Shown: positions 2,779 through 63,125 of the stretch, one piece after another
How the letters are laid out: every line of letters begins with the position of its first letter
How positions within the stretch are numbered: the first letter of the stretch is position 1
Assembly: GCA_045579705.1 (NCBI GenBank)
Contig: JAZNMP010000028.1
Coordinates: 5,320-69,319 of the forward strand
DNA from: Lachnospiraceae bacterium
GTDB lineage: Bacteria; Bacillota; Clostridia; Lachnospirales; Lachnospiraceae
DNA: 64,000 nucleotides
Direction: 5' to 3'
Position numbers and translations under genes: made by a program
Notes under the pieces: generated by a model
Database searches by the model: none
What the model was told of the DNA's origin: nothing
The model's input: the letters and a program-made list of their open reading frames with translations, nothing else

Positions 2779-5049
2779 CTATCTAAGCTTCCAGATTTCC
2801 TCATTGTACTGCGCTATAGTTCTATCACTTGAGAAAAAACCTGCCTTTGAAATATTTATTAGTGCCTTCCTATTCCAAGTTTTCTTATCTTCGTAATCAG
2901 CAAAGACTTTTTCCTTTATTTCGATGTATTCTTTGAGATCCAGTAAAGTCATAAAGTAATCTTTAGAGATTAGTTCTTTATACAATCTCTCGAGATGTTC
3001 TTCTTTACCACCAGCCTTCATAATCTCATCCGATACGATGAAATCAACCAGGCGTTTAATCTCTGGTTTTTCATAATACTCCTTTGAAACATATCCTGCA
3101 TCCTGGTAAAGCTTGATGACCTTGTCCTTCTTCTCACCAAAGATATAGATGTTATCCTCGCCAACCAGATCTCTGATTTCTACATTTGCACCATCCTCTG
3201 TACCGAGAGTAAGTGCACCATTCAACATAAACTTCATGTTAGATGTTCCTGAAGCTTCCTTTGAAGCCAGTGAAATCTGCTCGGAGATATCAGCTGCTGG
3301 AATAATTTTTCCTGCATAAGTTACGTTATAGTTTTCAGCCATAACGACTCTAAAATATGGAGCGACTTCCGGATCGTTCTTTGTAAGCTCGGACAAGCAA
3401 AGAATCAGATGAATAATATCTTTTGCAATCGTGTAAGCAGGAGCTGCCTTTGCACCAAAGATCATCGTAATAGGAGTCTTTGGCTTGTTTCCAGCCTTGA
3501 TGTCGAGGTATTTATAGATAGCATACAAACAGTTCATCTGCTGCCTCTTGTACTCATGCAATCTCTTTACCTGAACATCATAAATAGAATCAGTATTAAT
3601 AACTTCGCCCTGAGTCTTCTTCATATAATCAGCCAGCGCTTTCTTGTTCTCATGTTTGATGTTCTCGAGTGCATTCAAAACATCATCCGATTCGGCATAC
3701 TTCATAAGGCCTTCAAGTTTCTCGGCATCTTTAATAAACTCATCGCCGATCAACTCCTTAATCTTTGCTGTCAAAAGCGGATTAGCATGTACCAGCCATC
3801 TTCTAAATGTGATTCCGTTAGTCTTGTTATTAAATTTCTCCGGATAAAGCTTATAGAAGTTTGCAAGCTCTGTATCCTCAAGAATCTGTGTATGTAGAGC
3901 CGCTACTCCATTTACAGAATATCCATAATGGATATCCATATGAGCCATATGTACTCTATCATTATCATCTATAATGCGAACTGACTTATCTTCGTATTTT
4001 TCTCTTACACGGTTATCCAACTCTCGGATGATAGGAAGCAGATGTGGCACTACCTCCTCGAGATAATCAATCGGCCATTTTTCCAAAGCCTCTGCCAAAA
4101 TAGTGTGATTTGTATACGCACAGGTTCTGGAAACCACATCGATAGCTTCGTCCATCTTGAATCCTTCGATCTGAAGCAAACGAATCAACTCAGGGATTAC
4201 CATAGATGGATGTGTATCATTGATTTGAATAGCGACATGCTTATCAAGTTCATGAAGATCAACCCCACGGTCCTTCATCTCTTTCAGGATTAGCTGAGCA
4301 CCATTTGAAACCATGAAATACTGCTGATAAATACGAAGGAGCAGCCCTTCTCGATCACTGTCATCCGGATAAAGGAACAAAGTCAGATTCTTCTTAATAT
4401 CCTTCTTATCAAAATCAATAGAATCTTCGCCAACGATTCCATCGTCTACGCTCTCTAAATCAAATAGATGAAGTTTATTAATAGTTCCAGACTTATAGCC
4501 AGGAATATCAATATCATACATTACAGATTTCACATCGCCGTTTCTAAAAGGTACTACGAAAGATACGCCCTCTCTTTTTTCAAGCCAGCTATCCTTCTCA
4601 ATCCATGGATTCTTAACTTCCTGCTGAAGATTCTCTGAAAAAATCTGTCTAAATAATCCATAGTGGTAATTCAATCCAATTCCATCTCCAGGGAGATTTA
4701 ATGTTGCTATAGAATCCAGAAAACAAGCTGCAAGTCTTCCCAATCCACCATTTCCGAGAGATGGCTCGAGCTCAATCTCTTCGATTTCTTCGAGATTCTT
4801 TCCATGTGCAAACAAAACCTCTTTCACATCATCGTAAAGTCCCAGATTAATCAGGTTGTTCGAAAGCAGTTTACCCATCAGAAACTCTGCTGAGATATAG
4901 TACAATTTCTTCTGACCGCTTACTGCATGATGGCGCTCTAATTCATCCTTTGTCATATTCATCAGTACATCAAACAGTTCGATATCTGTACTTTCGCTGA
5001 TTCCATGTCCATACTTCTGTTTTAATAGGCCTTCTAATCTCTGTTCCAT
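2779..5049 (-). CDS. glgP: Glycogen/maltodextrin phosphorylase
   Basis: [36 protein letters not shown] and the PLP-lysine motif [14 protein letters not shown]. Confidence 0.95.
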
Positions 5050-6783: not shown

Positions 6784-6788
6784 CAGTA

Positions 6789-6872
6789 TGCTGGTGGCGG
6801 GGATCGAACCCGCACGGTGTCGCCACCACAGGATTTTAAGTCCTGCGCGTCTGCCAGTTCCGCCACACCAGC
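6789..6872 (-). tRNA. tRNA-Leu(TAA), CCA not encoded
   Basis: Acceptor stem GCTGGTG/CACCAGC, anticodon arm CAGGA-CTTAAAA-TCCTG, long variable arm, T arm GCGGG-TTCGATC-CCCGC. Confidence 0.97.
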
Positions 6873-6902
6873 ACGTGATAAATATCAATCACACGAGTAG
6901 GT

Positions 6903-6939: not shown

Positions 6940-8979
6940 CTACATTTCTCTCTTCCACTTAAAGACACAAGCTTCATCCTTTGCCAGATGAACTACAATA
7001 TGTCCATCCTGTACATCTTTATGCTTCGGCATAATAGAATGGCCTCGATAATTCGTCATCATAACCAGCTTCATCTTCGTGTCATCCATAACTCCAGCCT
7101 TCCATACCGGAATCTTTTCTTCCTGATCACTTCCGCTGGTTCCAACCACTACCACGAAAACTTCATCTTTATAGATTCTCGCATAGCTTACGAGATTTTG
7201 ATGACATTCCAGGAACATAAGCGACCCCAGTTTCAATGTATCGCTATTCTTATGTATCAATGTCATATCTCTATGGAAATCGAGGATTCTCCTGTCCTCT
7301 CTTCCCCATGGATAAGTACGTCGATTATCCGGATCTGTAAAACCGCATACACCAGCTTCATCTCCATAATACAAAGTAGGAGCGCCTGGCCAGGTCATAA
7401 GCATCACAACAGCCTGCTTTAAAACTGCAGGATTTACATCTTCCTCAGCAGCTCTACTTCCAAGCTCACTTACTCTTCCGACCTTGTGATTCGTTCTGGT
7501 CAAAAATCTGGAATGATCATGGTTTGAAAGCTGGTTCATAGAGCTATATATAGACGGAGCATTAAGCTCTGCCATCCTATATCTCATCGTATCTTCAAAC
7601 TGTTTTCCATTTCCTAAGGCAGCCTGATGAAACTCGTCACTATGTTTTTCCATTCCCGTCAGGAAGAAAGTCACCGGCTCCATAAACGCATCATAGTTCA
7701 TGATGGTATCCCATTCATCACCCTGTAACCAGGCTTTCGGGTCGCCATAATGCTCTGCAAAGATTACAGCATTCGGATTAGCACTTCTAACTTCTCTTCT
7801 GAAACGCTTCCAGAATTTATGGTTAAACTCTTCGCTATGTCCTAAATCAGCCGCTACATCAAGTCTCCAGCCATCAACATTATATGGAGGAGAGACCCAT
7901 TTCTTTGCGACTTCCATAATCTTGTTCTGAAGCGCCTTCGAATTCTCGTAATTCAGCTTTGGCAGGGTGTCATATCCCCACCAGCCATCATAGCCACCGT
8001 TGTATGGCCAGGCCTTGTCATCATAGAAATGGAAAAAATTATGATAAGGGCTATCCTTATCTATATATGCGCCCTTCGAGAAGCCCTCTATTCCCTCATA
8101 TATCCGTTCTCTGTCCAACCACTTATTAAACGAGCCGCAGTGATTAAAGACGCCGTCTATGATGATTTTAAAGCCTCTCTCATGCGCTTCACTAACGAAA
8201 TCAGCAAAGAACTGATTAGACGCTTCTAAGTTTTCATTGTTACATACTCTGGTCTGATATTTAGATGCCTTTTTGTTATCAAATTCTCCCACAGGAAGGA
8301 CTTCGCCTCCCTCGTTCTTAATCAGCGTCAAATGAGGATCTACGTATTCATAGTCCTGTGTATCATATTTATGATTAGAAGGCGATACGAACAAAGGGTT
8401 AAAGTAGATAACTTCAACTCCTATACTTTTCAAGTAATCAAACTTCTGGCGCACCCCTTCCAAATCTCCGCCATAGAAATTTCCTATATCGAGATTCTTC
8501 GGATCTTCACTCCAATCATCAATATAAGTTGCCAATTGTCCTACATATGAATATTCATTTGTAACTACATCGTTTGAGGGATCGCCATTGTAGAATCTAT
8601 CTACCATGATTTGATATATGATAGCGCCATGCATCCATGTCGGAACATAGAAGCCCGGCACCAGAGAAAAATAGTATTCACTTCGCAGATTATCTGAAAC
8701 ACCCAACTTATCGTAGAACACTTCCTCATCTCCGCAGGTAATACTAAAACAGTATTCAAATTTTTCGTCTGTCAAATAAATAGTAGTCTTATAAAAAGTG
8801 AAATATCCCTCATCTTTAAATTTACGCATAGGAATATTGCCAGTCTTTGTCATAAGAACCGGTGTACAATCATCCTCTTTCGCCACACGAATCTGTATAG
8901 TTACAGAACCGTCCTCCTCCGGCATCCAAGGACTCACATATTCAGTTGTACAATCACTAAATATAGCGTCTCTATTCAT
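6940..8979 (-). CDS. GH13 alpha-amylase family protein (neopullulanase/cyclomaltodextrinase-like)
   Basis: IYQIMVDRFYNGD, FYGGDLEGV, SNHKYDT, DGVFNH, GWRLDVA (catalytic D), AEHY and NHDHSRF; N-terminal beta domain. Confidence 0.9.
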   Translation of the reverse strand: MNRDAIFSDCTTEYVSPWMPEEDGSVTIQIRVAKEDDCTPVLMTKTGNIPMRKFKDEGYFTFYKTTIYLTDEKFEYCFSITCGDEEVFYDKLGVSDNLRSEYYFSLVPGFYVPTWMHGAIIYQIMVDRFYNGDPSNDVVTNEYSYVGQLATYIDDWSEDPKNLDIGNFYGGDLEGVRQKFDYLKSIGVEVIYFNPLFVSPSNHKYDTQDYEYVDPHLTLIKNEGGEVLPVGEFDNKKASKYQTRVCNNENLEASNQFFADFVSEAHERGFKIIIDGVFNHCGSFNKWLDRERIYEGIEGFSKGAYIDKDSPYHNFFHFYDDKAWPYNGGYDGWWGYDTLPKLNYENSKALQNKIMEVAKKWVSPPYNVDGWRLDVAADLGHSEEFNHKFWKRFRREVRSANPNAVIFAEHYGDPKAWLQGDEWDTIMNYDAFMEPVTFFLTGMEKHSDEFHQAALGNGKQFEDTMRYRMAELNAPSIYSSMNQLSNHDHSRFLTRTNHKVGRVSELGSRAAEEDVNPAVLKQAVVMLMTWPGAPTLYYGDEAGVCGFTDPDNRRTYPWGREDRRILDFHRDMTLIHKNSDTLKLGSLMFLECHQNLVSYARIYKDEVFVVVVGTSGSDQEEKIPVWKAGVMDDTKMKLVMMTNYRGHSIMPKHKDVQDGHIVVHLAKDEACVFKWKREM

Positions 8980-9039
8980 CTTGTTCCCCTTTGTTTCGAT
9001 AACCCTATTTTACAACTATAAGAAATCATTTAAAAGCAC

Positions 9040-9070
9040 AAAAAAAGAACAGCCGACGATGGCTGTCCTT
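9040..9070 (-). terminator. Terminator of the candidate sRNA
   Basis: AGGACAGCC-ATCGTC-GGCTGTTCT followed by a T run. Confidence 0.8.
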
Positions 9071-9124
9071 AGGAGAAGGTATTCTTACTATGGGGGTAGT
9101 AAAAATATATGTATTAGGGGTTTA
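9040..9124 (-). ncRNA. Candidate trans-acting small RNA with three C-rich motifs
   Basis: Flanked by the ftsH terminator and its own terminator, with -10 box TATAAT at 9135-9130 and no ATG/GTG. Contains 5' ACCCCU, an 11-bp hairpin with loop CCCCCA, and linker CCUUCUCCU. Confidence 0.6.
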
Positions 9125-9129
9125 CAGTC

Positions 9130-9141
9130 ATTATAATACCA
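9130..9141 (-). promoter_or_regulatory. -10 element of the candidate sRNA
   Basis: TGGTATTATAAT contains TATAAT and an overlapping TG-N-TATTAT extended -10. No clear -35. Confidence 0.55.
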
Positions 9142-9150
9142 CCGGCCTAT

Positions 9151-9200
9151 AAAAAAGTCTGCACAAACATCCATAAATTTCTACGGATTGTTTGTGCAGA
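9151..9200 (-). terminator. ftsH terminator
   Basis: TCTGCACAAACAATCC/GGATGTTTGTGCAGA hairpin followed by a T6 run, 13 bp after the ftsH stop. Confidence 0.85.
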
Positions 9201-9213
9201 TTTACCATGACAC

Positions 9214-11040
9214 TTATTTATCAAACAATGCTTCAAATTCTTCTCTTGTAATCTTCTCTTTTTCAAGAAGGAGATTAGCAGATGCATGAAGCACGTCCAT
9301 ATTATCCATTAAAAGCTTCTTTGCTTTCTCGTAGCAATCATCGATGATAGCCTTTACTTCCTGATCGATTTCTGTAGCTACAGCTTCACCATAAGGTCTC
9401 TGAGTAGCCAAATCCTTGCCCAGGAACACTTCATCATCATCACTACCATATGAAATCAGGCCCATCTTTTCAGACATACCATATCTCATAATCATATCTT
9501 TAGCTGTCTTTGTAGCAACCTTAATATCATTTGAAGCACCAGTAGTAATATCATCAAAGATCAATTCTTCAGCAATTCGTCCACCCAGCGTAACCTGAAT
9601 ATCCTGAAGCATCTCTCCCTTTGTGCTGAACATCTGGTCTCTATCTGGAAGAGGCATAGTATAACCAGCCGCTCCTACACCTGTAGGGATGATAGAAACT
9701 GTGTAAACAGGTCCTACATCCGGAAGGAGATGGAAAAGAATAGCATGTCCACTTTCATGGTATGCTGTAATCTTCTTCTCTTTCTCAGAGATAACACGGC
9801 TTCTCTTCTCAGAGCCGATGCCTGTCTTTACAAAGGCATCTTCGATATCTTTTCTACTGATAAAAGCTCTAGAATCTCTAGCTGCTTCAATCGCAGCTTC
9901 ATTTAACAGATTCTCCAGATCTGCTCCTGTATAACCAGCTGTAGTTCTGGCAACCTTATTCAGATCGACATCATCTCCCAGAGGTTTGTTTGCAGCGTGC
10001 ACTTTGAGAATTTCTTCTCTTTCTCCGATATCAGGTCTACGCACTGCAACCTTTCTATCAAAACGTCCAGGTCTCATAATCGCTGGATCCAGAATATCAA
10101 CTCGGTTTGTCGCTGCCATCACGATGATGCCTTCATTCTCGCTGAAACCGTCCATCTCTACGAGCATCTGATTCAAAGTCTGCTCTCTTTCATCATGGCT
10201 TCCACCCAAACCAGCTCCACGCTTTCTGGCAACAGCATCGATCTCATCGATAAAGACTATACAAGGGGCATTCTTTTTTGCCTCAGCAAACAAATCTCTA
10301 ACTCGGGATGCACCGACACCGACGAACATTTCTACGAAGTCCGAACCGGAAATACTAAAGAATGGAACTCCAGCTTCACCCGCGATTGCCTTTGCCAGCA
10401 AAGTCTTACCTGTACCAGGAGGGCCTACGAGTAACATACCCTTAGGGATTCTAGCACCAACTTTTGTAAATTTCTCAGGTTCCTTCAGGAATTCTACAAC
10501 TTCCTGAAGTTCTTCTTTTTCCTCTTTAAGTCCAGCTACATCCTTAAAACGAATCGTCATCTGATCCGCATTAGTTTTCTGCGCTCTGCTTTTTCCGAAA
10601 TCGGACATCCTACTGCCGCCGGACTGACCGCCCTGCATAGCCATATTCTGTCCATTTATAATAGCCATGAACAGGATAAACATCACAGCTACAACGATAA
10701 TCATAGGCAGAAGTGTCTGCATCCAGCCGTCCTTTGGAACATCCTGAACTACATAGGAAATATCATGATCCTGGAAGAGTTTCTCGATTTTGTTAACATC
10801 CGGAGTAACAGCAATAATCTTTCCCTTATCACTCTTCCCTTTTAACTCGAATTCAACTGAACCAGTAGGCACCTGAGCATTCTGAATGATTTTAACATTC
10901 TTAAGAGTATCGTTCTTTACAGCGTGCTCTAATGTCTGATAATCACAATTTGATGTAGTTCTAGTCGTACTGAGCATCCACATCACGAATACTATCGCAA
11001 CGATTAATAAATATACGCCTAACCCTCTTGACTTCTTCAC
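9214..11040 (-). CDS. ftsH: ATP-dependent zinc metalloprotease FtsH
   Basis: Two N-terminal TM segments, Walker A GPPGTGKT, Walker [19 protein letters not shown] and zinc motif HESGH. GTG start. Confidence 0.97.
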
Positions 11041-22471: not shown

Positions 22472-22581
22472 ATTCCCTTATTGTTCGATTACTCGCTTAA
22501 GGAAGGCACCTTCCGTCCAATGTCCGGAGGTTGTCGTGGTCTCACTGATCCTATTGTCTCCACCACTCTTAATAAGAGAAA
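22472..22581 (-). promoter_or_regulatory. SAM-I (S-box) riboswitch
   Basis: CTCTTATTAAGAG...GGTGGAG...GTGAGACC...GACAACC...GGTGCC TTCC...AATAAGGG. P1 pairing, kink-turn signature and AGGA/TCCT pseudoknot are visible; lies upstream of metK. Confidence 0.85.
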
Positions 22582-22748: not shown

Positions 22749-23897
22749 TTAAAGCGTTCTCACTATTCTACGATTTGGTTCACGAGATAGATCTACCACT
22801 TCGCCATTCTCTTTTTCGATAATAGGCCGTGAAAGTTTGGACTGATTAATATACACAACTCGTCCACTCGTACCATCATCCAGCATAACCATAGTATTGT
22901 GATGCATCCCTGCCAGATGTGAGAGAAATGTAAGTAAATACCTTGTGTTATATTTTTCCAGGCCGATCTTCTCAAACTCCTCAATCACCTCAAATGAGCA
23001 AAGCGGTGCTCTCTGTGGTCTAGGAGAAGTCATCGCATCGTATACATCTATAAGCGCAATCATGCTAGCGAAATCATCGATTTCATCTCCAGTTAGATTT
23101 CTAGGATATCCTGATCCATCACTTCTCTCATGATGCTGCAAAGCTGCATTTCTAATAGACATACCGAAGCCAGCATTCTTAAGAATTCGATTTCCGATGA
23201 TAGTGTGCTTCTTTATCTCATCGAATTCTTCCTGTGTAAGCTTGCCTTTTTTATTAAGCGCCTGAGCGCTCACTTCAGTCTTACCGATATCATGAAGTAA
23301 CGCTGCATTCGTAAGTTCATTCAAAGTCTGATTATCAAGTTTCAACCATCTACCCAGGACGCACGCCTCAAGTGCCACATTCAAACAATGTGAGTAAATA
23401 CTATCTTCTGAGAAGCGCACACATCTAATCATATTAAACAGTTCCAAAGCTGTTCTGTATTTAGAAATGCCCGCCGCATGCATAAGCAATGGTTCACTGC
23501 CAACTTTGAATTCGCCTCTTTTGATTCTTTCAAAGTTTCTCTTCAAATCCTCTAAGCAAAGTGCATAAGACAACTGAAATTCCCTAAATTCATCAGTCAG
23601 ACTTATCTTTTGATTAAATGATACATGGTCTCTAGTAAAACTAGATTCTTTAACTTCTTTAGTATAGCTTTTTACCTTTTCTTTAACTTCAACTGCTGGC
23701 TTAGCAGCTTTTTTCTCATCAACTGTCTCTTCGATATCATCGATAACAACTGATTGAATATGGTAAAAAGTAAATCTCGCAATCAACTGATTTGACAGAG
23801 TTGTATTTGCATCAGCCAGAGTCTGTCCACTCTTTGTCTTAACAGGAGCCCCCGTGACCATACCTGCCTCGACATCTTTTAACAAAATCTCTTTCAT
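22749..23897 (-). CDS. HD-GYP domain protein (putative c-di-GMP phosphodiesterase)
   Basis: HCLNV, LLHDIGK, KKHT, HHERSDGSGYP and DVYDAM..PR. Confidence 0.85.
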   Translation of the reverse strand: MKEILLKDVEAGMVTGAPVKTKSGQTLADANTTLSNQLIARFTFYHIQSVVIDDIEETVDEKKAAKPAVEVKEKVKSYTKEVKESSFTRDHVSFNQKISLTDEFREFQLSYALCLEDLKRNFERIKRGEFKVGSEPLLMHAAGISKYRTALELFNMIRCVRFSEDSIYSHCLNVALEACVLGRWLKLDNQTLNELTNAALLHDIGKTEVSAQALNKKGKLTQEEFDEIKKHTIIGNRILKNAGFGMSIRNAALQHHERSDGSGYPRNLTGDEIDDFASMIALIDVYDAMTSPRPQRAPLCSFEVIEEFEKIGLEKYNTRYLLTFLSHLAGMHHNTMVMLDDGTSGRVVYINQSKLSRPIIEKENGEVVDLSREPNRRIVRTL

Positions 23898-59868: not shown

Positions 59869-59942
59869 TCGATGCGACAGGATTCGAACCTGCGGCCTCT
59901 GCGTCCCGAACGCAGCGCTCTACCAAACTGAGCCACGCATCG
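59869..59942 (-). tRNA. tRNA-Pro(CGG), CCA not encoded
   Basis: Acceptor stem CGATGCG/CGCATCG with A73, anticodon arm CTGCG-TTCGGGA-CGCAG, T loop GGTTCGAATCC. Confidence 0.97.
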
Positions 59943-62060: not shown

Positions 62061-63125
62061 ATGGAAAAAAATTTATGGGGCAAAACTCCAAACGGAGAGC
62101 AAGTCTTTCGCTACTCTATAACAAACAAACTCGGCATGCATGCCACTGTAATGAACTACGGGGCAAATTTACTAGAATTATTTGTTCCATCACGTGACAA
62201 TTCCTTTGAGGACGTAGTTTTAGGATTTAAGGATTTAGATTCCTATTTCGAAAACCTTCCTTATTTTGGAGCATCTGTAGTTCCCTTTGCAAACCGAATC
62301 AAGAACGCATCTTTTTCCTTAAATGGAGAAACTTACCATGTAGATGCAAACGAAGGTACAAATTCACTCCATGGTGGGTCAAAAATTCCACCATTTCAGA
62401 AGCGAATCTGGGAGGTTTCTAGCCAAACCGAAGACAGCATTACCTTTCACATTAAATCTGAAGATCTCGAATTCGGTTTTCCAGGTAATCTAAAAGTAGA
62501 TTTAACTTACACGATAAACGATGACAACATGCTTCTCATCGAATATCATGCCGTTTCAGACAAAGATACTGTATTTAATCCTACTAATCACAGTTATTTT
62601 AACCTTAGCGGATTTAATGCAGGATCCAGAAAACTTCTCGAATCATCACTCTGGGTTGATGCAGATTATTTCACACCTACAGACGCAAACTCTGTTCCAA
62701 CAGGCGAGTTAGCTGAAGTCAAAGGAACTCCTATGGATTTCCGTGAACCACAGGCTCTGATCAAAAATGTTGATAACTTCGATTTCGAGCCTATCAAATT
62801 TGGAAAAGGATATGATCACAACTTCGTTATTAATAATTGGAATCATACCTTTAAGAAAGTCGCATCTCTGTACGATCCTAGTTCCTTCAAGACTATGGAA
62901 GTCTTTACAGATATGCCAGGAATTCAGGTTTACACAGGAAACTATATAGAGCCTTCCCCTATCGGAAAAAATAACACAACATTCCATCCTAGAGATGGTA
63001 TCGCTCTAGAAACCCAGTTTTTCCCAAACGCTGTAAACATTCCGTCTTTCCCACAGCCTCTTTTAAAGAAAGACGAAGAATTCATTTCAAAAACCGGTTA
63101 CAGATTTTCTGTATTAGATTTTTAA
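62061..63125 (+). CDS. galM: Aldose 1-epimerase (galactose mutarotase)
   Basis: ANRIKNA, NSLHGG, NPTNHSYFNL, GYDHNF and IALETQFFP. Confidence 0.93.
   Translation: MEKNLWGKTPNGEQVFRYSITNKLGMHATVMNYGANLLELFVPSRDNSFEDVVLGFKDLDSYFENLPYFGASVVPFANRIKNASFSLNGETYHVDANEGTNSLHGGSKIPPFQKRIWEVSSQTEDSITFHIKSEDLEFGFPGNLKVDLTYTINDDNMLLIEYHAVSDKDTVFNPTNHSYFNLSGFNAGSRKLLESSLWVDADYFTPTDANSVPTGELAEVKGTPMDFREPQALIKNVDNFDFEPIKFGKGYDHNFVINNWNHTFKKVASLYDPSSFKTMEVFTDMPGIQVYTGNYIEPSPIGKNNTTFHPRDGIALETQFFPNAVNIPSFPQPLLKKDEEFISKTGYRFSVLDF

Follow-up and report, generated by a model that had tools for sequence, protein, structure and literature searches.

In the window, a 64-kb stretch of genomic DNA from a Lachnospiraceae bacterium (contig JAZNMP010000028.1), ftsH and a gene for an alpha-amylase/neopullulanase-like protein are separated by a short spacer on the minus strand, and the element studied here, a predicted small RNA (sRNA) gene with its upstream boxes, lies within this spacer. 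An earlier note on this DNA had proposed a stand-alone sRNA gene with unpaired C-rich motifs at this position. Sequence comparison identifies the stretch as a real, strongly conserved gene for a small non-coding RNA with its own promoter and terminator, and the proposal is borne out within Lachnospiraceae by the promoter, the covarying terminator, the non-coding indels, the independence of genomic context, and the occurrence of arrays. The TATAAT sequence (9135-9130), the C-rich 5' end, the hairpin, the CCCCCA loop, the linker, and the terminator of that note were all recovered at the minus-strand positions given for them (Table 1).

The fold of minimum free energy (MFE) of the window sRNA gave exactly the hairpin and terminator described before, with an energy of -22.8 kcal/mol, whereas dinucleotide shuffles came to -9.7 +/- 2.7 (z = -4.86). 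The body of the predicted transcript contains no ATG, GTG, or TTG, in agreement with the previous reading of a transcript lacking a start codon. The rarity of C-runs was also confirmed: the minus strand of the window has 11 stretches of at least four C against about 34 expected from composition; two of these 11 are within the element, 25 nucleotides (nt) apart. Over the whole window such runs are distributed asymmetrically, 11 on the minus strand versus 54 on the plus strand, the C content of the minus strand being 15.9%. A covariance model search detected no second copy (paralog) of the sRNA in the window.

Table 1. Positions of the sRNA element, its parts, and its neighbours in the window.
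Feature	Position	Strand	Basis or remark
Predicted sRNA of about 86 nt, inferred to start at G9125 and to finish with the U-tract	9040..9125	-	ends predicted from sequence
Extended -10 element TGgTATTAT, overlapped by TATAAT (9135-9130)	9133..9141	-	
-10 hexamer TATTAT; TG at 9141-9140	9138-9133	-	family-wide spacing
Letters of the -10 region, TGgTATTATAAT	9141-9130	-	
Proximal box TGTTTGTGCAGAC, conserved in the family as TTTGTGCACACTT; makes up the 3' arm of the inverted repeat and overlaps the -35 region	9157..9169	-	
Distal box TCTGCACAAACA, conserved in the family as TGCACAAAAA; makes up the 5' arm of the inverted repeat	9189..9200	-	
Inverted repeat TCTGCACAAACA / TGTTTGTGCAGA	9200-9189 / 9169-9158	-	
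T6 after the inverted repeat	9156-9151	-	
5' single-stranded motif AAACCCCUAAUACAU, C-rich region 1 (family consensus CCCC(C)AAUACAUUAUAUAG)	9109..9123	-	
5' C-rich stretch AAACCCCU	9123-9116	-	
AU-rich 11-bp hairpin UAUUUUUACUA/UAGUAAGAAUA	9107-9097 / 9090-9080	-	in the MFE fold
CCCCCA loop, C-rich region 2 (family loop consensus ACCCCAUA)	9096-9091	-	
Linker CCUUCUCCU, inside the family-invariant AUACCUUCUCC	9071..9079	-	
Intrinsic terminator, G+C-rich; stem 9070-9061 / 9054-9045, loop AUCGUC, U-tract 9046-9040	9040..9070	-	terminator scan
ftsH (AAA protease), usual left (upstream) neighbour	9214..11040	-	Pfam Peptidase_M41, AAA, FtsH_ext
ftsH stop codon	9216-9214	-	
GH13 alpha-amylase/neopullulanase-like gene, usual but not obligatory right (downstream) neighbour	6940..8979	-	Pfam Alpha-amylase, Alpha-amylase_N
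Promoter-like site TTTAAA-16-TAAAAT between the sRNA terminator and the amylase gene	9034-9007	-	promoter scan

Conservation of the element in Lachnospiraceae

The element was found in more than 170 genomes of rumen and gut Lachnospiraceae, including Pseudobutyrivibrio, Butyrivibrio, Blautia, Fusicatenibacter, Roseburia, Coprococcus catus, Kineothrix, Lacrimispora, Enterocloster, Eisenbergiella, Acetatifactor, and Hungatella. The collected set consists of 167 distinct instances, as defined by distinct upstream flanks, with 159 unique RNA sequences. By scanning one genome per species for an exact 28-mer, three rumen metagenome-assembled genomes (MAGs) were matched. In two of these, L001 and L002, identity is 100% over the core, -10 through terminator, with the ftsH and amylase proteins at about 70% and 59% identity, respectively.

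A covariance model, R1, was built from five copies and gave a score of 115 bits for the window copy. Among 85 loci gathered through amylase homologs of 51-60% identity, 52 were matched by R1, all in the ftsH-amylase spacer and on the coding strand, and 92 more Lachnospiraceae loci were then matched. The consensus pattern learned from R1 matches, CCCCAATACAT-N(25-45)-ATACCTTCTC, was found at no fewer than 120 Lachnospiraceae loci; an earlier degenerate pattern, derived from the window variant, had given mostly chance matches in GC-rich genomes and only one new homolog.

About 60 nt of the element are nearly invariant, while identity of the ftsH and amylase proteins on either side is 51-70% for most carriers and reaches 89% in the closest genome. 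The family consensus reads G(+1)UAA(A/C)CCCC(CC)AAUACAUUAUAUAG-UUUUUGCUA(C/U)-ACCCCAUA-(variable A-rich)-AAAUACCUUCUC(C/U)-A-rich-terminator, and the predicted length, about 86 nt in the window, ranges from 80 to 105 nt in relatives. The check for conservation in relatives that the earlier note had suggested thus came out in its favour, the C-rich motifs being nearly invariant across the 159 unique variants. The short 5' stretch AAACCCCU to which it had drawn attention is present, but the conserved motif extends further, as CCCC(C)AAUACAU(UAUAUAG), and is nearly invariant over this whole length. The linker region AUACCUUCUCC is invariant or nearly so throughout the aligned homologs.

Promoter and upstream boxes

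In 148 of the 167 instances a -10 hexamer (TATTAT, TATAAT, or TATACT) precedes the conserved G by exactly 7 nt, and 130 have an upstream TG separated from the hexamer by one base (TGn). With this family-wide spacing the start in the window is predicted at G9125, within the previous estimate of 9123-9125. The TATAAT box of the earlier note does exist, but the spacing makes the overlapping TGgTATTAT (9141-9133) the functional -10. The -35 sequence, TGCACA, is weak and is overlapped by the proximal box; locus L200 carries TTGACA at the same position.

Of the 104 instances that carry the proximal box, TTTGTG(C/A/T)ACAC, 88 have its end 18 nt upstream of the -10. Together with the distal box it forms an inverted repeat, and both the sequence of the two boxes and their 21-nt spacing recur across genera, including loci where the sRNA is present without ftsH. 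In the window the repeat is followed by T6, and the earlier note had taken it for the ftsH terminator; in most relatives the repeat has no T-run after it, and the arms are conserved together with the sRNA promoter. Because of this conservation, the fixed distance to the -10, the occurrence without ftsH, and the usual lack of a T-run, the repeat is assigned to the promoter region of the sRNA. Since T6 does follow in the window, the repeat may there also terminate ftsH transcription.

The upstream boxes, TGCACAAAAA-N21-TTTGTGCACAC with TTGTG/CACAA half-sites, are most likely a transcription-factor site and are regarded as a candidate for it. In the upstream 110 nt of the 167 homologs a middle TTTGTGAA repeat is common, and 29 instances contain the distal 17-bp palindrome TTGTG-N7-CACAA, where chance alone would give 0.15. 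The half-sites presumably recall those of Rex, CRP, or ResD, with a different spacing: Rex sites have 8 nt between TTGTG and CACAA, and the distal palindrome has 7. In the window, the 11-mer TTTGTGCAGAC is the sole exact match to the proximal-box pattern. A search of the window for a regulon sharing the promoter boxes gave five matches versus about two expected, none convincing outside the element.

In Pseudobutyrivibrio (L029, L036-L041, and L043), GGGGAG is located about 10 nt before the ATGCACAAAAA box in the 3' untranslated region (UTR) of ftsH, and the two mimic a ribosome-binding site and a start codon; the open reading frames (ORFs) that follow are not conserved, with a stop after four codons in L035 and L036. 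Small ORFs, including one over the upstream repeat (ATGCACAAAAA...), were rejected since by eye neither frames nor lengths are conserved and the RNA body lacks start codons.

Structure of the predicted RNA

The features robust throughout the family are three conserved single-stranded motifs and the terminator. In predicted folds of 157 homologs, the mean unpaired probability was 0.90 for the 5' motif, 0.98 for the C-run, and 0.72 for the linker. In an alignment of 92 homologs fitted to the model, all 10 terminator pairs showed compensatory changes and 96-99% of the cells were paired; such an alignment favours the structure, and slid controls, in which the 3' partners were moved by 1-3 columns, gave only 37-49% paired. 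U-tracts are often short or interrupted (UUUUACU).

The middle hairpin is less uniform. The 11-bp hairpin is real in the window copy but clade-specific, and among the 157 homologs only 94 are predicted to fold with a hairpin around the C-run, with variable stems. The search for compensatory stem changes had a divided outcome: in the model-fitted alignment 88-99% of the cells of this hairpin were paired, with 25-30 unpaired cells at the inner pairs, and five of its 11 pairs change on both sides, but RNAalifold on a MAFFT alignment gave no consensus pairs, owing to misaligned terminators and the weakness of the middle hairpin. At locus L199, from an uncultured Eubacterium sp. MAG, the middle hairpin with its CCCC loop is replaced by an unrelated hairpin, UAAGCAGAAAUGCUUA, while the 5' C-motif and AUACCUUCUC are retained. 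This variant suggests that the second C-run may be dispensable.

The family is non-coding in character. No ATG precedes the terminator in 152 of 158 variants, and the distance from the first to the third motif, 26-40 nt, is equally spread over the three classes modulo 3. Readings of the element as a cre, RAT, ANTAR, or T-box sequence were dropped by eye for lack of fit.

Genomic context and copy number

Synteny was examined in about 200 loci. The commonest order is ftsH - element - amylase. In about 14 loci ftsH and the element are not followed by an amylase gene, about 10 carry the element with neither ftsH nor amylase, and one is rearranged. The alternative downstream genes code for a family-5 solute-binding transporter protein (SBP_bac_5), an OmpR-type regulator, a MoxR ATPase, a GH127 arabinofuranosidase, a phosphopantetheinyl transferase (ACPS), a C_GCAxxG_C_C protein, and TrkA; several of the downstream neighbours are convergent. 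Two-copy arrays are present at L183 (1307-1738), L178, and L225 (for the last, two pattern matches), L178 and L225 being from one MAG, and a three-copy array at L230 (5650-6340). Each array copy of L178, L183, and L230 has its own promoter boxes and terminator.

The L230 array is on an IMG/VR contig, with a prophage end (integrase, amidase, and HicB) on one side, and a chromosomal-looking ECF sigma factor and beta-galactosidase adjoin it. A phage origin of the element was considered and rejected: six IMG/VR contigs carry it, mostly at the contig edge, and the neighbours at L230 look chromosomal.

Mediterraneibacter, Dorea, Coprococcus comes, and Sellimonas genomes lack the element at ftsH. At loci lacking the element, the amylase gene begins about 20-200 nt after ftsH, mostly less than 110 nt. 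This short gap suggests that the starch-degrading amylase may be co-transcribed with the ftsH operon where the sRNA is absent. The order tilS-hpt-ftsH-amylase is kept across much of Lachnospiraceae (loci L026-L105, for instance L033, L047, and L071). At L038, L030, L035, L091, and L053 the sRNA terminator ends about 20-45 nt before the amylase start codon. Most species have no good terminator between ftsH and the element, and for this reason the sRNA terminator probably also ends ftsH transcripts in many relatives.

In the window, the amylase gene is followed on its 3' side by tRNA-Leu, malQ, and a glycogen/maltodextrin phosphorylase gene. The tRNA-Leu(UAA) gene (6788-6873, minus strand) is a same-strand insert between amylase and malQ in a string of genes resembling a maltodextrin-utilisation cluster. 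Elsewhere in the window, a further tRNA gene is located at 59869-59942 and a SAM riboswitch (S-box) at 22475-22578, both on the minus strand, the latter with 53.5 bits, above the Rfam gathering score.

Possible mode of action

The reading we favour, with a probability of roughly 55%, is that the element represents a new family of trans-acting sRNAs with C-rich seeds, that is, a base-pairing riboregulator. Transcription would start from the conserved G, 7 nt 3' of the TG-extended -10, and stop at the intrinsic terminator, under the control of a transcription factor that probably binds TGCACAAAAA-N21-TTTGTGCACAC. The RNA, predicted to be largely unstructured, would display CCCC(C)AAUACAU at its 5' end, ACCCCAUA, which is frequently part of a hairpin loop, and AUACCUUCUCC. 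These C- or CU-rich motifs could pair in trans with several mRNAs at their G-rich Shine-Dalgarno (SD) regions, and such pairing would block translation initiation and/or alter mRNA stability in the manner of RsaE/RoxS and LhrC in Bacilli. The exact RNA ends, the pairing in trans, the targets, and the regulator are what we infer here.

CCCC is complementary to GGGG, and CCUUCUCC to the SD-like GGAGAAGG. In LhrC, C-rich motifs occlude ribosome-binding sites. Occlusion of SD sites by unpaired C-rich regions is the established mode of action of RsaE/RoxS (PMC4409812). Pairing in trans is favoured because of the unpaired SD-complementary motifs and these precedents. SD sequences of the AAGGGGAA type occur in many start regions of the window, such as those of the genes at 22749-23897, 2779-5049, and 62061-63125 and of the amylase gene.

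Several observations weigh against the base-pairing reading. The best contiguous complementarity of the sRNA to start regions in the window was 11, compared with a mean of 10 and a maximum of 12.5 for shuffled sRNAs, a comparison of low power limited to one 64-kb window. In 75 genomes, the amylase start region paired no better than that of ftsH (p = 0.35), again at low power since two neighbour genes only were compared; RNAduplex runs on whole start regions returned unrealistic long-range duplexes. The hairpin that would present the second C-run is not a feature of the family. In addition, about 60 near-invariant unstructured nt exceed the usual need of seed pairing, and this leaves room for a protein or other conserved partner.

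The RNA data consist of assembled Logan contigs and unitigs of public runs, and contigs with the element occur in metatranscriptomes of rumen, sheep gut, and mouse gut and in transcriptomes of isolates. For Pseudobutyrivibrio ruminis (L038) in run X64, the sRNA unitig (2364-2484), which spans the -10 region to just beyond the terminator, had a word depth of 82, compared with 23 upstream and 8.5 past the terminator, and run X67 was similar; contig depth is a poor proxy of expression, k-mers are common to several species, and DNA may be present in the runs. Within a unitig the depth is flat, and contig breaks follow strain variation and k-mers common between species, not transcript ends. The depths are weakly consistent with a promoter and a working terminator. 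Also to be set against a stand-alone transcript is one isolate transcriptome with a single contig across ftsH, the sRNA, and amylase, indicating that read-through occurs or that DNA is present.

Alternative readings

The element could act in cis as a leader or attenuator. The sequence at 9141-9133 would then be the promoter of the amylase/maltodextrin genes, and the short RNA the product of premature termination with regulated read-through; a role in trans could coexist with this. As the sole function, an amylase leader or attenuator was ruled out by the diversity of contexts and the tandem arrays: the contexts are diverse and array copies have their own promoters, and therefore the element is not a gene-specific leader of amylase. 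The earlier note had named a mere read-through leader as an outcome that would overturn its proposal, and this is countered by the loci without amylase and the arrays. In its wider form we consider attenuation unlikely. It would account well for the position directly upstream of a same-strand amylase gene in most genomes, for the short or interrupted U-tracts, and for RNA-derived contigs continuous from the sRNA into amylase. In several genera, moreover, amylase starts only 20-45 nt past the terminator, so that no room is left there for another promoter. It does not account for the tandem arrays, or for the loci, about 20 at least, that carry the full unit including the promoter boxes with no amylase downstream, and no downstream gene family is constant. 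Where the element is missing, amylase follows ftsH at about 20-200 nt, and in the window the stretch from the terminator to amylase contains a promoter-like site. No competing antiterminator helix was seen in the folds of 157 homologs, and no riboswitch family was matched; since the terminator arms vary while the upstream motifs are invariant, a conserved anti-terminator complementarity is impossible. As an addition to the pairing function, attenuation is plausible where the amylase start is 20-45 nt from the terminator.

A second possibility, which also appears unlikely to us, is a protein-binding or sponge RNA that titrates an RNA-binding protein (KH-domain or S1-like) or mimics the 16S anti-Shine-Dalgarno sequence. 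The near invariance of about 60 nt family-wide, while ftsH and amylase diverge to 51-70%, would be expected of such an RNA, the conserved sequence is predicted to be single-stranded, and tandem arrays would raise gene dosage in some genomes. No convincing mRNA target emerged from the searches of the 64-kb window and the two neighbour genes, which could also be taken in its favour, but these searches were low-powered. No candidate protein is linked to the locus, and exact complementarity of the motifs to GGGG and GGAGAAGG is a hallmark of pairing sRNAs in Bacillota (PMC4409812).

More speculative, and rather improbable, is that the RNA, in place of an ordinary seed-pairing sRNA, serves some conserved machine of the Lachnospiraceae cell as its RNA subunit or as a decoy. 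The about 60 invariant unstructured nt, among them the anti-Shine-Dalgarno-like AUACCUUCUCC, might have as their partner a dedicated protein, the ribosome, or the platform on which the ribosome binds mRNA. If so, the RNA would globally switch translation or metabolism in the fermenters that dominate gut and rumen, under a family-wide TTGTG-box factor.

There is little to recommend the view that the element is the 3' end of the ftsH operon transcript, namely a 3'-UTR or terminator module for termination or stability of ftsH mRNA, even though it lies downstream of ftsH at the large majority of loci, mostly with no good terminator before it, and though an upstream metatranscriptome unitig runs from ftsH into the element. 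A conserved and correctly spaced promoter stands in front of the element, about 10 loci lack ftsH, arrays exist, and a terminator module would not need 60 invariant nt upstream. Finally, a purely DNA-level regulatory region (an operator or a recombination site) or a small protein-coding gene is very improbable and appears already largely refuted by the covariation of the terminator and the missing frame: the palindromic, repeated TTGTG/CACAA boxes and the conservation at sequence level would suit a DNA site, but the boxes are upstream of the -10 while the invariant 60 nt are downstream of it, with a covarying RNA hairpin and U-tract at their end, the conservation is strand-specific with C-runs on the C-poor strand, and neither a start codon nor reading-frame conservation is present.

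Comparison with known regulatory RNAs

Searches by cmscan against Rfam 15 gave no sRNA match at the gathering threshold for the window, none at E <= 10 for positions 8900-9300, and none at E <= 5 for seven homolog loci. The RNA is therefore not a member of RsaE/RoxS (RF01820), LhrC, or a riboswitch family, and the Rfam check asked for by the earlier note leaves the novelty standing. Literature searches, including one with the motif strings, returned no publication on this RNA, nor was a characterised trans-acting sRNA of Lachnospiraceae found in the papers searched. By its sequence features it is an uncatalogued family of a known type of regulator.

The closest likeness is to RsaE/RoxS of Staphylococcus and Bacillus. 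Both are stand-alone sRNAs of Bacillota, about 90-115 nt in length, that have an extended -10 promoter with conserved upstream sites for regulators and end at an intrinsic terminator, here as read from the sequence, and both have several unpaired C-rich regions, predicted in the present case, that are able to pair with SD sequences. RsaE/RoxS is controlled by ResD/SrrA and Rex. Like the Lachnospiraceae RNA, RsaE/RoxS is unusually well conserved for an sRNA (PMC4409812, PMC5419742), and its motif is the duplicated CCCCUUUGUU of the C-rich regions CRR1-4 (PMC4409812). In contrast, the Lachnospiraceae RNA carries CCCC(C)AAUACAU, ACCCCAUA, and AUACCUUCUCC/CCUUCUCC instead of the duplicated CCCCUUUGUU, comes from Clostridia with synteny downstream of ftsH, and shows no covariance-model match to RsaE/RoxS.

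LhrC1-5 of Listeria monocytogenes are also short RNAs with C-rich motifs in loops or single-stranded stretches, and their genes form tandem multicopy arrays, as the Lachnospiraceae RNA does with two to three copies in some genomes. The two differ in that neither sequence nor covariance-model similarity was detected, the window has a single copy, and the motif is CCCC, not UCCC. With sRNAs derived from attenuators or riboswitches, such as rnTrpL of Sinorhizobium and SreA of Listeria, the RNA has in common a short terminated transcript upstream of a co-oriented metabolic gene, which in several genera seems to lack its own promoter; it differs by having no ligand-binding or antiterminator architecture and no leader peptide, and by its occurrence away from amylase and in arrays.

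In the human colon and in the rumen, Lachnospiraceae rank among the most abundant fermenters, and major producers of butyrate belong to the family. The RNA is family-wide, more conserved than its essential neighbour, and equipped with a conserved promoter-operator module, and hence should be a core regulator, not a strain-specific curiosity. A gene of about 90 nt in cultured Pseudobutyrivibrio, Coprococcus catus, Blautia, Kineothrix, and Fusicatenibacter provides an entry point for RNA biology, with three seed motifs that can be mutated and an upstream operator for finding the transcription factor. Carriers in culture include Pseudobutyrivibrio ruminis DSM 9787, P. xylanivorans, Blautia celeris, and Kineothrix alysoides. 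If it acts like RsaE/RoxS, the principle of C-rich seeds would extend from Bacilli to Clostridia through an independently evolved RNA.

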